Below, piece after piece: positions 1-7,309 of a stretch of 38,243 nucleotides of DNA. The DNA comes from a virus (Duplodnaviria; Heunggongvirae; Uroviricota; Caudoviricetes): IMG/VR virus record IMGVR_UViG_2721755660_000008, positions 1 to 38,243 of that record. One strand, 5' to 3'. The stretch's first letter is position 1; each line of letters begins with the position of its first letter. Below the pieces are notes generated by a model. That model was not told the DNA's origin and did not search any database. It worked only from the letters and a program-made list of their open reading frames with translations. Position numbers and translations under genes: made by a program.

Positions 1-2133
1 TCACTTAAAAGGAGTGTTTATCCTAACAACTCTCAAATAAACATCTCTTATATTTTCACCTCCATTTGGCCTTAAAATTGTTGCTGAAATAACTCCACTT
101 TGTGAAGCAGATACTGTTGCGTTATATACTAATGAACTATTGAATTGTTGAGCGTGTATTTGCCTTGATGTTGTTTCAATTTGCTCTCCGGCTCTCATCA
201 TAACTGCATGTTCTGAAAAACACCCGCCAGCACCAGTTGTTGTTGTCGCTGTAACCTCAACTCTATAGAAATACATAGCAAGCACACCTGAGTTTACTGA
301 ATTATTTGGAACTGGCACTTGTACGGTTATTGAGACTGGGCCGCTATCAACTCCTGTTGTCTGAGCACACCAGCCAATTTCACCATTCTGAGATATTAAT
401 GTGAATATGCATCGATCTTTTGTCCCAGCGTTTACCTGATACGTTGTTGTATAGGTGGCGCCATAGAAATGCTCTACGGTTATGGCAGTACCGAAGTTCT
501 CTCCCCAACCAGTCCATGAAGGCCAGATACTGGCATTGCTTTTAATGGCTACGCCATTATTGATGCACTTCAGAGACACTTTCCCATTATTACAAGAACT
601 CAAGAGCACAGGGACTCCAGGAATGCTGTTCCTTAGTGTTATCTCAACATCCGGCTGCTCTGCGGTTACCAACATTAATGGCTCGACTGTTCTTGGAACC
701 GTATTGAGCGGTATGTTAATCTCCATGTCACGCACTCGCGTCCTTGTACCGCCACATAGAAATGCGCACACACCACCTACATTAGCAGGAAGATAAAGTC
801 GAACACCTTCAAAAGACAAATCAAAAACATCCGATTGAGAATTTGTGATGATTTGAATAAGGTGTATAGGGCCGTTAACATTTTCTCCCGTAAAATTACT
901 CTTACTGGTGATGTTTCTGTAAATACCACCTGTTCCTGATACTTTTGCCGCAAACACTGGTGTGTCCGTCATGGTGCAAACCAAACCATCAACAACACAC
1001 CCTGTTGACCCCGTGAGTTGTAAAGTTACATTGCAGCCGCCGTATCTGTTAGATAGAGGTTCTCCGAACTCACCACAGTTTGTTATAGAACCACTAGTGT
1101 TATTGATATACATCAGGTGTGACGGACCATACGCACCGAAACTTTCGTCATGCCGCAATGTCCCATACACGTACTCAATATTGCATCCTGCAAAGTTGTT
1201 AATAAGTGCGCATGAATAGTGTGTACAATAGATGTTAGAGAATAGAGAGCCTCTAAAATCACCCTCATAACCAGAAACAAGGAAGTCGTAGCGATTATCA
1301 CTGGTTTCACCGACTGCCATCGCATTAATCAATTTGAAACGATACGCGTTTGAATTCATCCCGATAAAGCCACAGAACGCAGCTTCCCACGGGCGAGTAA
1401 TTCCATAGCGAGTGGTTGTTGTGCCCCCCAAAGGATAGCCGCCTTTATAGACAGCATTAAATCCCATAATGGTCACATCAGGATTCCTGTTCATGAAGAC
1501 CAGAAATCCAGTTTTCTCATGAGTTATTTTAGCACCGTTAAAATCAATATATGCACCAGCGGGAGGAGTGATGACATTTTCCTCATTCATCACCATACGA
1601 TATGTGGAACCTCTCTTCATGAGGCATCTTCCAGTCATAATAGCATTAGTCACCGCCACTGTATCATCAGCTACACCATCTCCAATTGCTCCATATTGCT
1701 CTGGCGTTGCCCAATATGACAAACTATCCGCTACTGTACCAGCCAAGTATCCAATTTTAGTTGCACCATCTTCTTCAGACAGCTCACTTCGAAATTGATC
1801 AGGGTCATACTTCAGCACATTTGGGAATTTGAACTGCTGTGCACCATACGCATCATAAACAGCCATAGAATGGCCTTGCTCAGTTACGAATTTGGCAATC
1901 TGTCCGTTATATACAGGGTAACCAGCGGCGTTAATGATGATTGGTTGCGAAACGGGAACATGAGAGCCGTCTTCGTTCTCTACATAAACCTGAATCTGGT
2001 TTTCTGGATTTACCGGGTCAGTGTCAATTTTACCGATATAAATTTTGCCATTGGCTACGGCTTTAAAAGAACGAGCCATAGTGAAGAGTTGCGAAGGCAT
2101 GCTAACTACAACATTGGCTGTAATGTCTGTCAT
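1..2133 (-). CDS. Tailspike protein: P22 gp9-type N-terminal head-binding domain plus a different beta-helix (pectate-lyase-like) receptor-binding domain
   Basis: ORF 1..2169; N-terminus [11 protein letters not shown]...[10 protein letters not shown] matches P22 tailspike head-binding domain; start placed at Met13 (2133) with GGAG RBS upstream; motif [12 protein letters not shown] typical of beta-helix depolymerases. Confidence 0.9.
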
Positions 2134-2189
2134 TTGATTTGCTCCAGATACAAGAAATCGCCGCAGCATGGCTACGGTGAATTTTGGGC

Positions 2190-2233: not shown

Positions 2234-3163
2234 TCAGTAGTTATGTACTGAAGGAGGTAATTCTTTATTCTTAAGTCTCATCCATGCGGAAAGATTCGCT
2301 GGTCCGTCTGGCTCATTAATATCAACATCTCGTGTGTGGTTTATTAAAACGTCTCTCGCCATTCCGATAACATACGAGAATTCATTACCGTAGTCGTAGC
2401 ATCTGCCGGAATAGTTCGATTGAATTTGTTTTAATGCCGGATACAGTTCGCGGAATAATGCCTGTGAGCGGTTGGCATAATCCCATAGCCATACAAGGCT
2501 GTTTGCTTCTTTTGCAGAAAGCTCGTCGGTTTTCTTCTCTTGTTTGCCGATGAACTCGCCTTCAAGTGGAACTCGAGCTGCAAGTGACAGTGCTTCGGCA
2601 AACTGCTCCTCACTGATTTCTTTGTATGAACACCCAAAATGAGATTTCAGTGACGACCACATGGTGATCATCGCCTTAGCCTGTTTTTCCTTTGGCAGAG
2701 ACTGACCGCGACTCATGACGAGTTGTTTAATGGCTTCCTGCTGTTCAGTGGTGATTTTACCCGGCAACGCCTTTTTAGCTTTGCGTGGGTTAACTACATG
2801 GCCTTTAGTCCAGTACTCGTATAGCACATCGTCACACTCTTCCTGATACTGGATTACCTTGTCGCGGATTTCAGGGCGGACTTTGTTTGGACTGATGGTT
2901 TGCAGCCAGCCAGCAAGTTTGCGAAGTGCCAAACAAATAATCTCACGGCACTGTTCATCACCAGGAAGCTGCATTGTGATTTTCACAATGGAGGTTTTAA
3001 ACCGTTGCTTTATTTTCGTAAACTGTGAAGCCCAATCCATACCCATACCTTCAACGATAGGTTTCATTGGGGTGTACGGCTCACCGTTGTGATTGACGAC
3101 ATAAAGCTCTGCGCCGTGGAATGGCACGTTGATAGTAGATACTGCTGTTGCTATACTTTTCAT
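2234..3163 (-). CDS. ant: Putative antirepressor (Ant-like)
   Basis: 309-aa ORF immediately downstream of an Arc-like RHH gene in the same orientation (P22 immI arrangement arc-ant-gene 9); N-terminal region resembles phage antirepressor N-domains; GAGGAA RBS. Confidence 0.5.
   Translation of the reverse strand: MKSIATAVSTINVPFHGAELYVVNHNGEPYTPMKPIVEGMGMDWASQFTKIKQRFKTSIVKITMQLPGDEQCREIICLALRKLAGWLQTISPNKVRPEIRDKVIQYQEECDDVLYEYWTKGHVVNPRKAKKALPGKITTEQQEAIKQLVMSRGQSLPKEKQAKAMITMWSSLKSHFGCSYKEISEEQFAEALSLAARVPLEGEFIGKQEKKTDELSAKEANSLVWLWDYANRSQALFRELYPALKQIQSNYSGRCYDYGNEFSYVIGMARDVLINHTRDVDINEPDGPANLSAWMRLKNKELPPSVHNY
3129..3157 (+). promoter_or_regulatory. Putative Psar-like promoter inside the 5' end of ant, firing antisense to ant
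   Basis: TTGATA-17 bp-TATACT on plus strand; predicted start about 3163-3165, directly opposite ant start codon and RBS. Confidence 0.45.
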
Positions 3164-3229: not shown

Positions 3230-3376
3230 TCATTCTGGACAAACAATTCCATCCTTAGCTACTGACTCCTTTAGTCTCCTCAATACCTCATTACTGAACG
3301 ACCGATCATCCTTTTTCGCGGACTGCTCCAAAGCCTTTTCCAGCCATTCTGGCATCCTTAATGTCTTAACTTTCAT
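3230..3376 (-). CDS. arc: Arc-like ribbon-helix-helix repressor (48 aa)
   Basis: Hand-translated ORF absent from the 60-aa ORF track: MKVKTLRMPEWLEKALEQSAKKDDRSFSNEVLRRLKESVAKDGIVCPE; beta-strand KTLRMP plus two helices as in P22 Arc; AAGGAG RBS 6 nt upstream of ATG. Confidence 0.65.
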   Translation of the reverse strand: MKVKTLRMPEWLEKALEQSAKKDDRSFSNEVLRRLKESVAKDGIVCPE

Positions 3377-3387
3377 TTTTGCTCCTT

Positions 3388-3435
3388 TGTATGCGGTACG
3401 CATACATAGTATTTAGGTACGCATTGATAGTCAAT
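3388..3435. promoter_or_regulatory. immI-like operator/promoter region: 19-bp palindrome TGTATGCG-gta-CGCATACA (3388-3406), palindrome ATTGA-tag-TCAAT (3423-3435), direct repeat GGTACGCAT x2
   Basis: Perfect inverted repeats in the 104-bp arc/mnt divergent intergenic region. Confidence 0.5.
3406..3434 (-). promoter_or_regulatory. Putative Pant promoter for arc-ant
   Basis: Minus strand TTGACT-17 bp-TACTAT; predicted start falls inside the 19-bp palindrome. Confidence 0.5.
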
Positions 3436-3480
3436 AGATACCTACATATCCTGTGGTAAAAAATTATTCAGGATGCGCCG

Positions 3481-3732
3481 ATGTCTGATCGTAAGTACAA
3501 AAACCCTCAAGTGAATCTGAGGCTTCCTGTAGAGATAAAGGAACGTCTTATTGAACTGGCTGAGGCTAATTCTCGTTCATTAAATGCTGAGATGGTCGCA
3601 GCACTTGAAGCATGGACCGAAAAAAACAAACACATTCAAGCACTAGATCTTGCAACTATAGCATCGCGACTGATAGAGCTTGAGCATGATGTTGAGAAGT
3701 TAAAATGTATGCATGGCAATGGTGAAAAATGA
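3481..3732 (+). CDS. mnt: Mnt-like ribbon-helix-helix repressor (83 aa)
   Basis: N-terminus KNPQVNLRLPVEIKERLIELAEANSRSLNAEMVAALE is an Arc/Mnt-type RHH; same length as P22 Mnt; divergent from arc as in P22 immI. Confidence 0.6.
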   Translation: MSDRKYKNPQVNLRLPVEIKERLIELAEANSRSLNAEMVAALEAWTEKNKHIQALDLATIASRLIELEHDVEKLKCMHGNGEK

Positions 3733-4046
3733 AACGTATCGCTATCCTATTGCTCCTGTGTCTCTCGAGCATAGCTAACGCAGAAACAAAATCAGACGAT
3801 AGCAGTTTTGATGAAATACAAGGCCTCATGATAGCTTCTAAAATGGCTGGTATGTGTGGTGCAATCAAACAAATGGCAATATTCCAAGAATCTACAAACA
3901 TGCCAGGTGGGAATGAATTCTTACAGAGATTCCTTACTACAGAGCAAGCAAGGCTCGGGATGACTCCGCAGCAATTTCTTGAAGCATGTCAGAAATCAAT
4001 CTCTATTTATACCACCTATTACAATATGAGCTCTGAGAAAAAATAG
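3729..4046 (+). CDS. Small secreted (periplasmic) protein of unknown function, 105 aa
   Basis: Start overlaps mnt stop (ATGA); Sec-type signal peptide MKRIAILLLLCLSSIANA; AT-rich codons with several ATA. Confidence 0.6.
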   Translation: MKRIAILLLLCLSSIANAETKSDDSSFDEIQGLMIASKMAGMCGAIKQMAIFQESTNMPGGNEFLQRFLTTEQARLGMTPQQFLEACQKSISIYTTYYNMSSEKK

Positions 4047-4323
4047 ACTAGGATTTCAACGGCTTCCGCGTCCCTGAGTAATTCTGTTGCGGATTTGCTT
4101 CTTGCGGTGGTTTAAGCTGGAGAGCTTGGCTTCTGCTTCTGATATTTGCGCATCTAGATCTTTAAGCTCAAGATCTGAAAGTCGCTGGTCAAGCAGGAAG
4201 TCACTCCCTGTTACCGTTAGAACTCACAACATAAGCAATGTTGAATCCATAGCTAATATCGTTTTCCTGGCTGGCTCAGAACGTTTCGCAAACCTATTAT
4301 CAAGATTCCTGTTACATCCTCTA

Positions 4324-4581
4324 TTATGGGGCTTTGCCACCCCAGCCGCCGACCATGCCAGATTGAGAGAGTACGGGAAATGCCTCGATAACGATCTTGA
4401 TCGCTTCGTTGAGACGTTCAATATCGACATCGGAACCCATATTAGGTGGGCATCCCTGATAGCAGACTCGACCATTTTGGATGCTAACAAGGCTCTTGAG
4501 CATGGCATAATTAATTCCATAAAAACTGCAAGGCTGGTATCCAATCAGGCAAACTGGTGGGTTGTTTGATGGGTAAATCAT
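4324..4581 (-). CDS. Hypothetical Cys-containing protein, 85 aa
   Basis: AAGGAG RBS 5 nt upstream of ATG, directly after a terminator; no AGA/AGG/ATA codons, unlike the overlapping plus-strand ORF. Confidence 0.45.
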   Translation of the reverse strand: MIYPSNNPPVCLIGYQPCSFYGINYAMLKSLVSIQNGRVCYQGCPPNMGSDVDIERLNEAIKIVIEAFPVLSQSGMVGGWGGKAP

Positions 4582-4594
4582 GATTACTCCTTAT

Positions 4595-4625
4595 AAAAAA
4601 CCCACCTGACGGTGGGTTTCATTTC
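4595..4625. terminator. Bidirectional intrinsic terminator
   Basis: AAAAAA-CCCACC-tgac-GGTGGG-TTTCATTTC; flanked by A-run and T-run. Confidence 0.6.
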
Positions 4626-5045
4626 TTAATCTTGCTTCGTAGAAGGTATAAGAGATGCATTTGCCTCTTTTGGCTTCAATGTATACATCCCACCATTAAA
4701 TGGATCAACAGCAAGCCAACCGATTAACCCACCAAACACAAGGTTTCCACCAATATACCAACCATTAGCATTGGCTTTGATTGGCAGGGTAACTGGTTCG
4801 TACCCATCCTTTTCCATAGTGATCTGGTAGCTCTTTTTGCCAAAATAACTACCATCTGACTTGGCAAGAGTTACTCCTTGTGGAGTCTTGCCTTGCGCAA
4901 CAATCACGCCTGATTCATCTTTTACCTTAAAGCTCGCACCGGAAGGGTTGCTGTTCACTTGCACAAGTTGCGTTTCATCACCAACAATAGTTGCGCACCC
5001 AGATAACATGATAGCGCCAGCAACGACGCTAATAATCCTCTTCAT
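4626..5045 (-). CDS. Lipoprotein of unknown function (possible superinfection exclusion moron)
   Basis: ORF 4626..5057; signal peptide with lipobox LSGC (MKRIISVVAGAIMLSGC); start placed at second Met (5045); located between gp16-like gene and immI region where P22 carries sieA. Confidence 0.65.
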   Translation of the reverse strand: MKRIISVVAGAIMLSGCATIVGDETQLVQVNSNPSGASFKVKDESGVIVAQGKTPQGVTLAKSDGSYFGKKSYQITMEKDGYEPVTLPIKANANGWYIGGNLVFGGLIGWLAVDPFNGGMYTLKPKEANASLIPSTKQD

Positions 5046-5140
5046 ATCAATTTCCATATCTAAAAAACCGGAAACATCCTAATGACAAACCATTCAAATG
5101 TGAAGCACGAGATAAGATCAATCCATCCGTGGACGACTAA

Positions 5141-7309
5141 TTACTCCTGTGTCATTCCGCTTAGCGATGCCACAATCCCAGCCCTCGACAAACGCTGGAA
5201 CTCTTCGTTTCCTAGTGCATCGCGAATTGCTTTTACGGCGGCCTTATTTGCCATAAATCTGCGTTCCGCCGCCGCTAATGCGCCATCACTTGCCCCAACT
5301 TTAACTGCCTTTGTCGCCTCTTGAACAGCCTTTTCAATAGCGTAACGACCACTTCTGGTTGCGGATAATTTCGCTATCGATCCTTTTGCTATTGCATCAA
5401 TTGCTCCACCTGCAGCGCCACCCACTATTGCTCCAATAACACCTCCTCCAGAGAACCCTGCGATAGCGCCAGCGGTTGGAAAAGCGCCAGACAATACGCT
5501 CTCTAAAACTGGATGAAGGCCATTCTCAAGAGTGCTAATGGCTGGCATAGAGCGCCCTGTTTGTTCAACATATCGAAGTGGCTTTGTTGCTGCTCTTGCA
5601 AGTTCTCCAAACCCCCTAGCAATCCTACCAAGCTCTGGAGAATATCGACTAATTGCCTTCACGTTTTGTGGGGTAAGAATAGTCGCGATATGCTTAATTC
5701 CAGCCTCTTCAGACTTACCTCCTCGTACCCCTTGCGATACCGCATCTTGTAATATTGATGCAATTGCTGGCGCGCGTTCCGACTCAGGTAGGGCGCTTAT
5801 TATTTTATGGAACTGACCTGTTCCACTTTTTGCTGAACCCTGCAACGCCTTAGAGCCATTAGTTACCAACTGATCAGTTGCAAGGTCTCTACCAAACGCT
5901 GCTTCAGCCTGTTCTTGTGCTGTAAATCTTGCTTTTGATAGATCATTAGCTTTTTGCCAGTCATCAAGAAAACCGCCATTTTGAGCCATTATGCGCATAT
6001 CTTCCGTTGCTGCATCACGAAGCTCAGCCATGCGCCTTGCCGTATTTGCCTCACCAGACCTTATATACTTCTGCTCTGCGTCAGCAAGTTTACTTCGCCA
6101 TGCCTTCATGGCATCAAACGTGATTCCTTTTTTACCAGTTTTAGCATAAGCAGATGCGAATTGTTTCATCTCAGGAGTTAGCGGCATGCCAGCCAAAATA
6201 TCACCCTGAATTGTAGCGTTCAGGTTTGACATTCTGGCCTTTGCGTCAGGCATCGTGGAGCGGACGCTATCCCATGCGGCCTTTTCTGAATTTTTCATTT
6301 TATCAATACTTGCCAAAACCCTTTGTTTTATGGCTGCACTTTTTTCTGATGCAGTTCCTGCTTCAGCCCCAAACTCATCCAATGCTGAGTTAAATTTCGA
6401 CTCTATTTCACTGAATGCTTTGGTGTGTGCATCCTGTGTAATTCCGGGCTTTGACGCCAGAATCCCCTCCGCCTGAGCAAGACCACGACTACCTGATCTC
6501 ATGCCAGGAGTTAATGCGTTGATATCTATTCCAGCAGTATCTGCTGCTTTTGCTATTTCGTCTGACACATTAGCTGACTGTCTGGCAATAATCTCTCTTC
6601 CTGTACCAGACTTTGCCATTTTCGAAACATCAGCAGCGGAATTTATTGCCCCGCCACCAAGAACTTGAGGTGATTTAGAGGTTAAGATCCTTCCAGCCCC
6701 AGAAAGTATCCCCTGAGCACCAATATTGATACCACCGTTAATGGCAGCATTTTGTGCAAAGTCGCCCTCCTGATTTGCAGCATCAGCAAGAGAACCGGCA
6801 ATCATGTTTCCTGCGGAACCGATGTCTCCTGCTAGCTTTGCTGGCGCTCCAGCAGCTTTTGCTGCTGTGCCAATTGGCAGGAGATACCCACCAATTGTTT
6901 CACCGGCTTGCGCGTAAGGGTCTGTCGGTCGCTCGACAGGGCGATAAACATCATCCAAAACCTTGGGGCCGCCAAGCCCCTGGCTGATTGCATTAATCAG
7001 ACTTGCGCCACCCTGCAATACGTCAAATGGTATGTTTACCAGACCACGACCAGCCTGTTCTGCAATTTGCCCTGCACTTTGACCACCAGTGAGCCAATCG
7101 CCAGCTTGTTGCATCAATGATGGTTCTTCTTTCTGCTGCTGAGGTGGAGGGTATGCTGCATAAAACTGATCTCTTGCTTCAGCCCATTTGTCACCAGCCT
7201 TAGGGGCAACAACCTCATCAAAATATTGCGCTTGAGCCTGTGCTTTCTGTTCTTCAGTTAACGCCTGATACTGTGGAGAAGCGATAACATCTTTCCATGC
7301 TTTAGCCAT
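5141..7309 (-). CDS. DNA ejection/injection protein (P22 gp16-like), 722 aa
   Basis: Position after gp20 homologue; Gly/Ala-rich large protein; start overlaps gp20 stop (TAATG). Confidence 0.8.

Follow-up and report, generated by a model that had tools for sequence, protein, structure and literature searches.

Which protein is made from the small open reading frame (ORF) joined to the end of the repressor gene mnt in a P22-like virus, and what does this protein do? The question is raised by a DNA of 38,243 nt, referred to here as the window, which is the IMG/VR virus record IMGVR_UViG_2721755660_000008 from position 1 to 38,243. The window comes from a P22-like (Lederbergvirus-type) prophage or phage. 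On its plus strand, a 105-codon ORF at 3729-4046 starts before the mnt-like gene has ended, and a preliminary description of this DNA had proposed that a secreted protein is produced here together with the repressor. The analysis indicates that the ORF is a real gene under purifying selection. Its product is best explained as a prophage-expressed, exported, stand-alone periplasmic moron protein, and the probability of this explanation is estimated as about 0.55. The central features are:

3481-3732, plus strand: mnt-like ribbon-helix-helix repressor gene, 83 aa (Pfam Arc PF03869, E=3.1e-10)
3721-3732, plus strand: translational-coupling junction, with GGTGA at 3721-3725, AAA, and ATGA at 3729-3732 (read from the sequence)
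3729-4046, plus strand: 105-codon ORF, with its ATG at 3729-3731
3729-3782, plus strand: predicted signal peptide of 18 codons (MKRIAILLLLCLSSIANA), by rule-based reading, with the predicted signal peptidase I (SPase I) cut after Ala18
3783-4046, plus strand: mature 87-aa predicted periplasmic domain and stop codon (AlphaFold2 (AF2) models and alignments)

Translational junction and export signal

The TGA of mnt at 3730-3732 and the ATG of the ORF at 3729-3731 are merged into the ATGA at 3729-3732, which gives a 4-nt overlap. This overlap was part of the preliminary description, and it can be read directly from the DNA. A Shine-Dalgarno-like GGTGA, complementary to the 3' end of the 16S rRNA, is located upstream at 3721-3725.

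The N-terminus of the ORF protein (MKRIAILLLLCLSSIANA, followed by ETK) begins with an n-region that contains K2 and R3; then come a hydrophobic core of 12 residues and A-N-A at positions -3 to -1. By rule-based reading, the Sec and SPase I rules are satisfied by the division MKR / IAILLLLCLSSI / ANA, with the cut before E, and no lipobox was found in the N-terminus. The signal peptide is the sole hydrophobic segment of the protein. Similarly, a hydrophobic N-terminal segment is present in 120 of the 120 aligned family members with the K..G.C motif, and the GenBank record of the homologue in phage Kapi1 contains a signal-peptide call by DeepTMHMM. The sequence of the signal peptide diverges among the homologues and the export character stays. 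The Sec signal peptide that had been proposed is upheld as a sequence feature by its n-, h- and c-regions, by the A-x-A pattern, and by the hydrophobic N-termini of the homologues.

The mature part contains exactly two Cys, C43 and C87, as had been described; a third one, C11, is inside the signal peptide and is not conserved. The GC content of the ORF is 39.9%, compared with 47.2% for the window, and the GC at third codon positions is 0.39. ATA is used for 4 of the 9 Ile codons. The AT-rich codon usage with several ATA, also reported earlier, was found again by these counts.

Conservation of the ORF and its protein family

The ratio of nonsynonymous to synonymous substitution rates (dN/dS) of the ORF was 0.15 against a 72% homologue from E. 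coli and 0.09 against a 65% homologue from Citrobacter freundii. In the core, from residue 34 to the end, the values were 0.09 and 0.04, respectively. Relaxed selection was found in the linker behind the signal peptide (residues 19-33). Synonymous sites were saturated while the protein sequence was under strong purifying selection. An antisense ORF at 3656-3901 on the minus strand was rejected as spurious, as selection acts on the plus-strand frame.

The homology searches that the preliminary description had proposed gave a match to phrog_19844, a PHROGs family of unknown function, at E=1.1e-69, with residues 1-105 aligned to profile positions 1-105 of 105. By a word-indexed search, the close relatives were limited to 11 clusters from Enterobacteriaceae. 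When 1.84 billion representatives, clustered at 50% identity, were searched exhaustively by profile, the family grew to 257 clusters at E<=0.001, 164 of them at E<=1e-10, and nearly all of the 257 are about 100 aa long. The named sources are Pseudomonas, Methylophaga, Luteimonas, Yersinia, Nitrosomonas, Burkholderiales, and Sulfurimonas. Further homologues were supplied by GTDB genomes, from Limnobaculum, a Chromatiaceae metagenome-assembled genome (MAG), and a Pseudobdellovibrionaceae MAG; in the genome-contig profile scan, the alignment was limited to members with the MPGG[D/N]EF motif. The family spans several proteobacterial classes and the one Pseudobdellovibrionaceae MAG. A soil-metagenome contig of 4.4 kb (L089) carries two family copies in opposite orientation, at 287-553 on the plus strand and 3933-4181 on the minus strand.

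Taken together, the dN/dS values, the full-length phrog_19844 match, the 257 clusters, and the kept signal peptide confirm the gene call of the preliminary description. It could be argued that the frame is conserved yet non-functional or untranslated, and that it was kept through the recombination junction beside mnt, where the 3' end of mnt and the start of the ORF form a mosaic boundary. Such a case is extremely improbable, as purifying selection acts on the protein at saturated synonymous sites, and hundreds of diverged homologues keep the length, the signal peptide, and the invariant residues.

Across 61 diverse members, C43, F52, Q53, E72, R75, and C87 are invariant, and K38, G41, G44, T56, G60, G61, F64, R67, F68, and Y94 are nearly so. 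The conserved core reads K-x-x-G-x-C-G ... F-Q-x-x-T-K-M-P-G-G-D/N-E-F-x-x-R-F-x-x-T-E-x-A-R-L-G. No family was assigned by Pfam, NCBIfam, or PADLOC to the ORF protein or by Pfam to 61 relatives, and a literature search for WP_000820796 gave no result. The family is one of uncharacterised proteins, and its members are predicted from their signal peptides to be exported.

Several known families were considered and rejected. For the LTXXQ proteins CpxP/Spy, the window protein has LTTEQ at 69-73; Q73 is not conserved over the diverse family (the consensus is T-E-x/A-A-R-L-G), and Pfam gave no match. For the GGDEF diguanylate cyclases, the family consensus M-P-G-G-D-E-F (GGNEF in the window) is part of a loop between two helices in a protein of 100 aa, and no match to PF00990 was found. 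Similarly, no family-model or fold match was found for the lysozyme inhibitors Ivy, MliC/PliC, PliG, and LprI/DUF1311.

Predicted structure

Structure prediction, which had also been suggested in the preliminary description, gave a three-helix model. With 9 sequences, the AF2 predicted local distance difference test score (pLDDT) was 74. With 121 sequences and the mature part, it was 88.8, and the predicted template modelling score (pTM) was 0.71. The helices cover mature residues 6-38, 43-58, and 62-85, or about 24-56, 61-76, and 80-103 of the precursor. Helix 1 holds the invariant G-x-C-G and helix 3 holds C87, and their heights are presumably compatible with a disulfide. Nothing below E=0.29 was found in the PDB by sequence search with the single protein or the profile, and a Foldseek search of the model against BFVD found nothing below E=0.8.

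Coupling to mnt through allele exchange

At least 80% of the 851-bp query from window positions 3400-4250 was found in 23 of 5,426 complete E. coli genomes. The pair in E. coli is labeled in RefSeq as an Arc-family protein and a hypothetical protein. The 72% variant from E. coli and the 65% variant from C. freundii overlap mnt by 4 nt likewise. For viral contexts, 43 IMG/VR loci were mapped. An ORF of 99-100% identity is present in 11 of these 43 loci, always with the 4-nt overlap with the upstream Mnt gene, and the 72% variant is located behind the window-type Mnt in 10 loci. In all, the 4-nt overlap was found in L002, L009, and L012 and in 21 viral loci.

The Mnt of the window is 95% identical to the product of the annotated mnt of CUS-3 and 28% identical to P22 Mnt, with equal length and position. 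The Mnt genes ahead of the near-identical ORF copies belong to at least four alleles, of window type, P22 type, Kapi1 type, and C. freundii type. The latter three are only 30-36% identical to the window Mnt. The same ORF behind several Mnt alleles, and the same Mnt before the 72% variant, indicate that both partners are swappable while the joint is kept. The coupling to Mnt thus outlasts swaps of the repressor allele and the cargo allele alike.

The last 20-35 nt or so of mnt are conserved among alleles that are otherwise unalignable, and encode ...(L)K.M(Y/H)G(N/K)(G/D)(E/A)K and the stop codon. This 3' tail of mnt resembles a joint that is dedicated to recombination and coupling, similar to the "boundary sequence" annotated in CUS-3. 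Mosaic breaks were located near 3709 and 4197 by megablast against phages, and the right break was placed at about 4181-4197 by ungapped comparison. The ORF is absent from CUS-3, SEN22, and P22. These data show that the ORF moves as a cassette and that its translational junction to mnt is conserved. The physical coupling claimed in the preliminary description holds for the 72% and 65% variants and for four or more divergent Mnt alleles.

The joint also leads elsewhere. Mnt alleles that are 30-49% identical to one another share the C-terminal tail and the ATGA joint (window about 3690-3732, L001, L012, L034, L036, and L038), which leads into differing cargo, either ORF 3729-4046 or Kapi1_062. 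P22 Mnt has a different end and no overlapping gene. In Kapi1 (MT813197; L001 2573-3749), mnt is ATGA-coupled to Kapi1_062, a cytoplasmic-looking protein of 69 aa. Kapi1_059, which is the 47% homologue, and Kapi1_060, a secreted ORF of 60 aa, come next on the same strand. The Kapi1 papers describe an O-antigen change that is unmapped and a "hyp19" that could not be deleted and that has toxic neighbours; mnt transcripts in the lysogens were below detection.

Transcription signals

The following elements are found upstream of mnt:

3385-3409: inverted repeat with 11-nt arms, between arc and mnt
3410-3448: operator-like inverted repeat with 18-nt arms, 78% complementary, covering the -35 hexamers of the divergent promoter-like sites
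3434-3406, minus strand: Pant-like divergent site TTGACT-17-TACTAT (consensus scan, 9/12 matches)
3424-3452, plus strand: Pmnt-like sigma-70 site TTGATA-17-TATCCT (consensus scan, 9/12 matches), overlapping the Pant-like site

The number of promoter-like sites was not above the shuffled expectation, and the Pmnt-like and Pant-like sites are to be read as consensus matches only. The repeat with 18-nt arms overlaps both of them, and the layout matches that of Omnt and Oarc in the P22 record. The inverted repeats at 3385-3448 are likely the Arc and Mnt operators, an assignment inferred from this layout, with sequences unlike those of P22. On the plus strand between 3452 and the ORF, the consensus scan found no promoter-like or terminator-like site, so that expression from the mnt transcript is the simplest reading. 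Behind the ORF, no outstanding terminator hairpin was found by the scan or by folding (z-score -0.33).

The preliminary description had called P22 mnt monocistronic, and this is contradicted by the P22 record BK000583. There, the mnt terminator is annotated downstream of orf59a, and sieA follows in the same orientation with its own promoter. A small ORF behind mnt is a normal P22-like layout, because the P22 mnt terminator follows orf59a. What is particular to the window is the overlap with mnt and the predicted export of the product: P22 orf59a is separated from mnt by a 99-nt gap, whereas the ORF is joined to mnt by the 4-nt overlap.

Accessory slot and neighbouring genes

The genes around the pair are:

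1-2169, minus strand: head-binding tailspike gene (gene 9 homologue)
2234-3163, minus strand: antirepressor gene ant, with domains P22_AR_N and P22_AR_C
3230-3403, minus strand: arc, Arc-family gene
4056-4197, minus strand: remnant of the 3' end, about 47 codons, of a gene for an XhlA-like coiled-coil protein (phrog_7586), convergent to the ORF
5141-7309, minus strand: DNA-transfer protein gene, gene 16-like

In P22-like phages, the stretch from gene 16 to gene 9 has been described as a fast-changing "ant moron" that contains immI, sieA, and various genes without a known function (Villafane et al. 2008, PMC2629481). The ORF is positioned between the homologues of these two genes, beside mnt, arc, and ant. 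It is a moron gene in this variable "ant moron" (immI region), and its slot is the one occupied by sieA and other accessory genes in P22-like phages. The likeness to the P22 "ant moron" (mnt-orf59a, sieA, and hkc genes) extends to the orientation, which is that of mnt and sieA, to the highly variable gene content, and to the mosaic boundaries, and P22 orf59a is likewise a small ORF ahead of the mnt terminator. The cargo is different: the ORF belongs to another family, phrog_19844, whose members are predicted to be exported. Unlike other "unique" genes of the ant moron region, the ORF has hundreds of relatives outside P22-like phages.

Envelope proteins are encoded next to some homologues. In C. 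freundii, a SieA-like membrane protein gene (phrog_7745, 2.2e-6) starts 13 nt after the ORF homologue in one apparent operon. The 72% variant is followed by the gene of a 161-aa lipoprotein, phrog_6067.

A convergent XhlA-like gene (phrog_7586) is located behind 11 of the 11 near-identical copies in viral contigs. In the window, only its last 47 codons or so are left, and it ends at the right mosaic boundary at about 4181-4197. Intact XhlA-like genes encode 61-92 aa (e.g., E. coli OkiPb01715 and Kapi1_061), and the window frame is interrupted by stops upstream of about 4200. This constant neighbour could suggest a role in the phage life cycle, with the ORF protein as a periplasmic modulator of lysis timing or virion release that acts together with the XhlA-like protein. 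A precedent is T4 RI, which is a periplasmic lysis regulator. However, the 72%, 65%, and Yersinia variants have no XhlA-like neighbour, the window copy of that gene is truncated and the ORF is intact, and homologues exist outside phages. Moreover, the ORF is opposed to late transcription and is tied to a repressor that maintains lysogeny. A lysis role is improbable on these grounds.

A related arrangement was found in Yersinia. In a lambda-like prophage of Yersinia enterocolitica, the ORF homologue has a remnant of the mnt 3' end in front of it. The homologue stands behind a 148-aa Arc-domain gene with a 208-nt gap and faces a Bro-N/P22_AR_C antirepressor gene. The layout of the viral contigs L054 and L055 is similar. 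In these Yersinia lambda-like siphophage prophages (L015 5050-6869; L054, L055), the immI-like module is within the tail gene region. Its components are a 142-170-aa protein with an Arc domain, a small ORF in divergent orientation, which in L015 is Arc-related, and the Bro-N/P22_AR_C antirepressor, with the ORF homologue downstream. Downstream in L054, the opposite strand carries two more small ORFs whose N-termini resemble signal peptides.

Homologues outside immI

The settings of the other homologues are diverse. The Pseudomonas homologue is in an island with an integrase, a resolvase, a cyclic-oligonucleotide-based antiphage signalling system (CBASS), and a gene for an HsdR N-terminal domain. 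The Methylophaga homologue is in an integrase-flanked site, and the homologue of the Chromatiaceae MAG is in an integrase/AlpA island. By ORF translations, without family-library scans, the Nitrosomonas homologue was placed beside insertion-sequence-like ORFs and repeats that resemble an array of clustered regularly interspaced short palindromic repeats (CRISPR), the latter judged from repeat-like ORF translations, and the homologue of the Pseudobdellovibrionaceae MAG was placed between scpA-like and scpB-like ORFs. By the same means, homologues in other phages were found in an apparent baseplate cluster, with the gene opposed to its flanks, in a recombination-like region, and beside a Pseudomonas tail-fibre-like gene. 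Some phage homologues (e.g., L056) are oriented opposite to the flanking late genes. Some homologues are in ordinary chromosomal settings with no visible mobile context.

No partner gene was shared by more than two independent loci in all-against-all neighbour clustering of 15 and then 34 non-immI loci. Two upstream ORFs, of 131 aa in Sulfurimonas and 133 aa in Chromatiaceae, each overlap the homologue by 4 nt; they are mutually unrelated, and a conserved partner was rejected. The result shows that outside immI the family gene travels alone, with no conserved partner.

These settings bear on another explanation, in which the protein is an orphan periplasmic immunity protein or inhibitor. Its target would be a widespread antibacterial enzyme that acts in the periplasm (an amidase or lipase effector of a type VI secretion system (T6SS) or Rhs protein, a bacteriocin, a lysozyme, or a lytic transglycosylase), and it would guard the host from competitors or host lysozyme, not from phages. 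T6SS immunity proteins of the Tai4/Rap type and lysozyme inhibitors are small exported neutralisers of enzymes that act in the periplasm, and some of them are helical and disulfide-bonded. The ORF product is likewise predicted to be small, helical, exported, and Cys-paired, and its gene is a lone one on many mobile elements and islands. The invariance of the motif across classes would suggest a target that is itself conserved, for instance the active site of an enzyme. In one locus (L026, 1-5309), the homologue is about 1.2 kb downstream of an Rhs/SpvB-type toxin gene, of which a 362-aa C-terminal piece has a GHSLG lipase-like motif. This is the sole effector-proximal case: no effector gene adjoins the ORF or the homologue in any other locus, and no conserved neighbour was found in the 34 loci. 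On this ground, a resemblance to Tai4/Rap-type immunity was rejected. Cognate immunity proteins usually diverge with their toxins, whereas the core of the ORF is strongly conserved, and Pfam gave no match, lysozyme-inhibitor families included. An orphan immunity protein is therefore considered unlikely.

Proposed function

For the exported periplasmic moron protein, the following course is proposed. The ORF would be transcribed with mnt from Pmnt, which in P22 remains active while the prophage is repressed. Ribosomes that end mnt would reinitiate at the ATGA, aided by GGTGA. The 105-aa precursor would be exported by Sec and cut after Ala18. In the periplasm, the three helices of the 87-aa product would pack into a bundle, with a C43-C87 disulfide as the probable staple over a tight-packing site at G-x-C-G. 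This single-gene module would bind a component that is resident in, or arriving in, the periplasm. The effect would be a protective interference with an incoming agent in the periplasm, with the genome-delivery step of superinfecting phages as first choice.

Host-protecting functions are classically supplied by prophage accessory genes that are expressed from repressor operons, among them rexAB, sieA, and sieB. The role of the ORF protein is most likely protective for the lysogen at the envelope. A protective role is favoured because of the slot and the co-encoded envelope proteins, namely the SieA-like protein and the lipoprotein. The more specific role of superinfection exclusion, by interference with the genome delivery of incoming phages, is put forward tentatively. 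SieA acts on the periplasmic and membrane conduit of gp20 and gp16 and thereby blocks injection (Leavitt et al. 2024, PMC10883804). The ORF shares its slot and orientation with the gene of P22 SieA; both are accessory genes of prophages, and the ORF product is likewise predicted to be located in the envelope. Unlike SieA, which is integral to the inner membrane, the ORF protein is predicted to be soluble with a cleavable signal peptide; it has no match to phrog_7745 and no sequence relationship to SieA.

T4 Spackle (Sp) offers another comparison. It is a small helical disulfide-containing periplasmic protein that blocks superinfection at the cell-wall step as an inhibitor of the gp5 tail lysozyme. 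Its precursor, like that of the ORF, has about 100 aa with a signal peptide. Membership in the Spackle family was rejected: hhalign of the 121-sequence profile against T4 Sp gave a probability of 1.5% with 10 aligned columns, which cover signal peptides only. A fold shared with T4 Spackle was also looked for, and no specific fold match was found. Unlike the ORF, Sp is expressed by a lytic phage and not from a prophage repressor operon. The ORF protein may still work like T4 Spackle or periplasmic immunity proteins by analogy, without membership in those families.

Several points weigh against this explanation. The transcription and translation of the ORF, and the cleavage and any phenotype of its product, are predictions. 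Kapi1 is the sole relative with RNA sequencing of a lysogen, and there mnt was not above the detection threshold (PMC12922286), so that Pmnt may not be active in the lysogens of relatives. This weakens the constitutive lysogen expression predicted in the preliminary description; the conversion or exclusion role proposed there is plausible from the position of the gene. The same invariant residues are found in Nitrosomonas, Sulfurimonas, Methylophaga, Pseudomonas, and the Pseudobdellovibrionaceae MAG. The presence of the motif in bacteria that are unlikely to meet P22-like phages suggests a broadly conserved target, which is a poor fit with a target specific to the ejection proteins of P22-like phages. 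Some of the invariant polar residues could be structural rather than part of a binding surface. Finally, no PADLOC match and no sequence or fold link to known exclusion proteins was found.

A broadly conserved target is also what a different proposal would hold. In this proposal, the protein is a lysogenic-conversion factor that binds a conserved periplasmic component of the host, such as an enzyme of the cell wall or of lipopolysaccharide (LPS)/O-antigen, Tol-Pal, Lpt, or a sensor, and phage exclusion is a side effect. Conservation of the motif over hosts of several proteobacterial classes argues for a conserved cellular target, and for some homologues on chromosomes no mobile context is visible. 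Furthermore, Kapi1, which carries the 47% homologue, changes the O-antigen of its host by an unidentified gene (PMC8787464). However, the Kapi1 phenotype is unmapped, and the homologue is not on the candidate list of the authors (PMC8787464). No link to a characterised pathway was found, and a patchy distribution on mobile elements is atypical of a housekeeping partner. The odds of such a conversion factor are judged to be low.

A bolder proposal, of low probability, goes further. The family might be an unrecognised, widespread, mobile single-gene module for envelope defence. The invariant face of the three-helix protein would plug an activity that many invaders need to cross the wall or the periplasm, e.g., the muralytic enzymes of virions or secretion systems. 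In P22-like prophages, the module would be wired to Mnt and made while the prophage is silent. If the product is an exclusion or immunity factor, a soluble periplasmic mechanism would be added to a slot known for the membrane protein SieA, and a family without a Pfam model would receive a name. If it has no such phenotype, the ORF is one more "ant moron" gene of unknown function.

Other genes in the region

Further small ORFs lie in the region from the XhlA-like remnant to the gene 16 homologue. The ORF at 4324-4581 on the minus strand (85 aa) has a full-length match to phrog_7758 at 1.1e-61, and it is overlapped by an ORF on the opposite strand at 4087-4569 (160 aa). The latter has weak similarity to ClpP and head-maturation proteases (phrog_94, 6e-7; PF00574, 0.023). 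Its counterpart in phage phiv205-1 is annotated as a "head maturation protease", and this protease label may be a relic or an error.

A gene at 4626-5057 on the minus strand encodes a lipoprotein of 143 aa with the lipobox LSGC. Full-length matching was obtained with phrog_6823, along with a weak match to the PEGA domain (E=0.0038). The similarity of this lipoprotein to the exclusion lipoprotein Cor is confined to the signal peptide. The gene is ended by a strong hairpin terminator at 4598-4619, with a T-run next on the minus strand. Its position directly after the gene 16 homologue makes it another candidate envelope moron.

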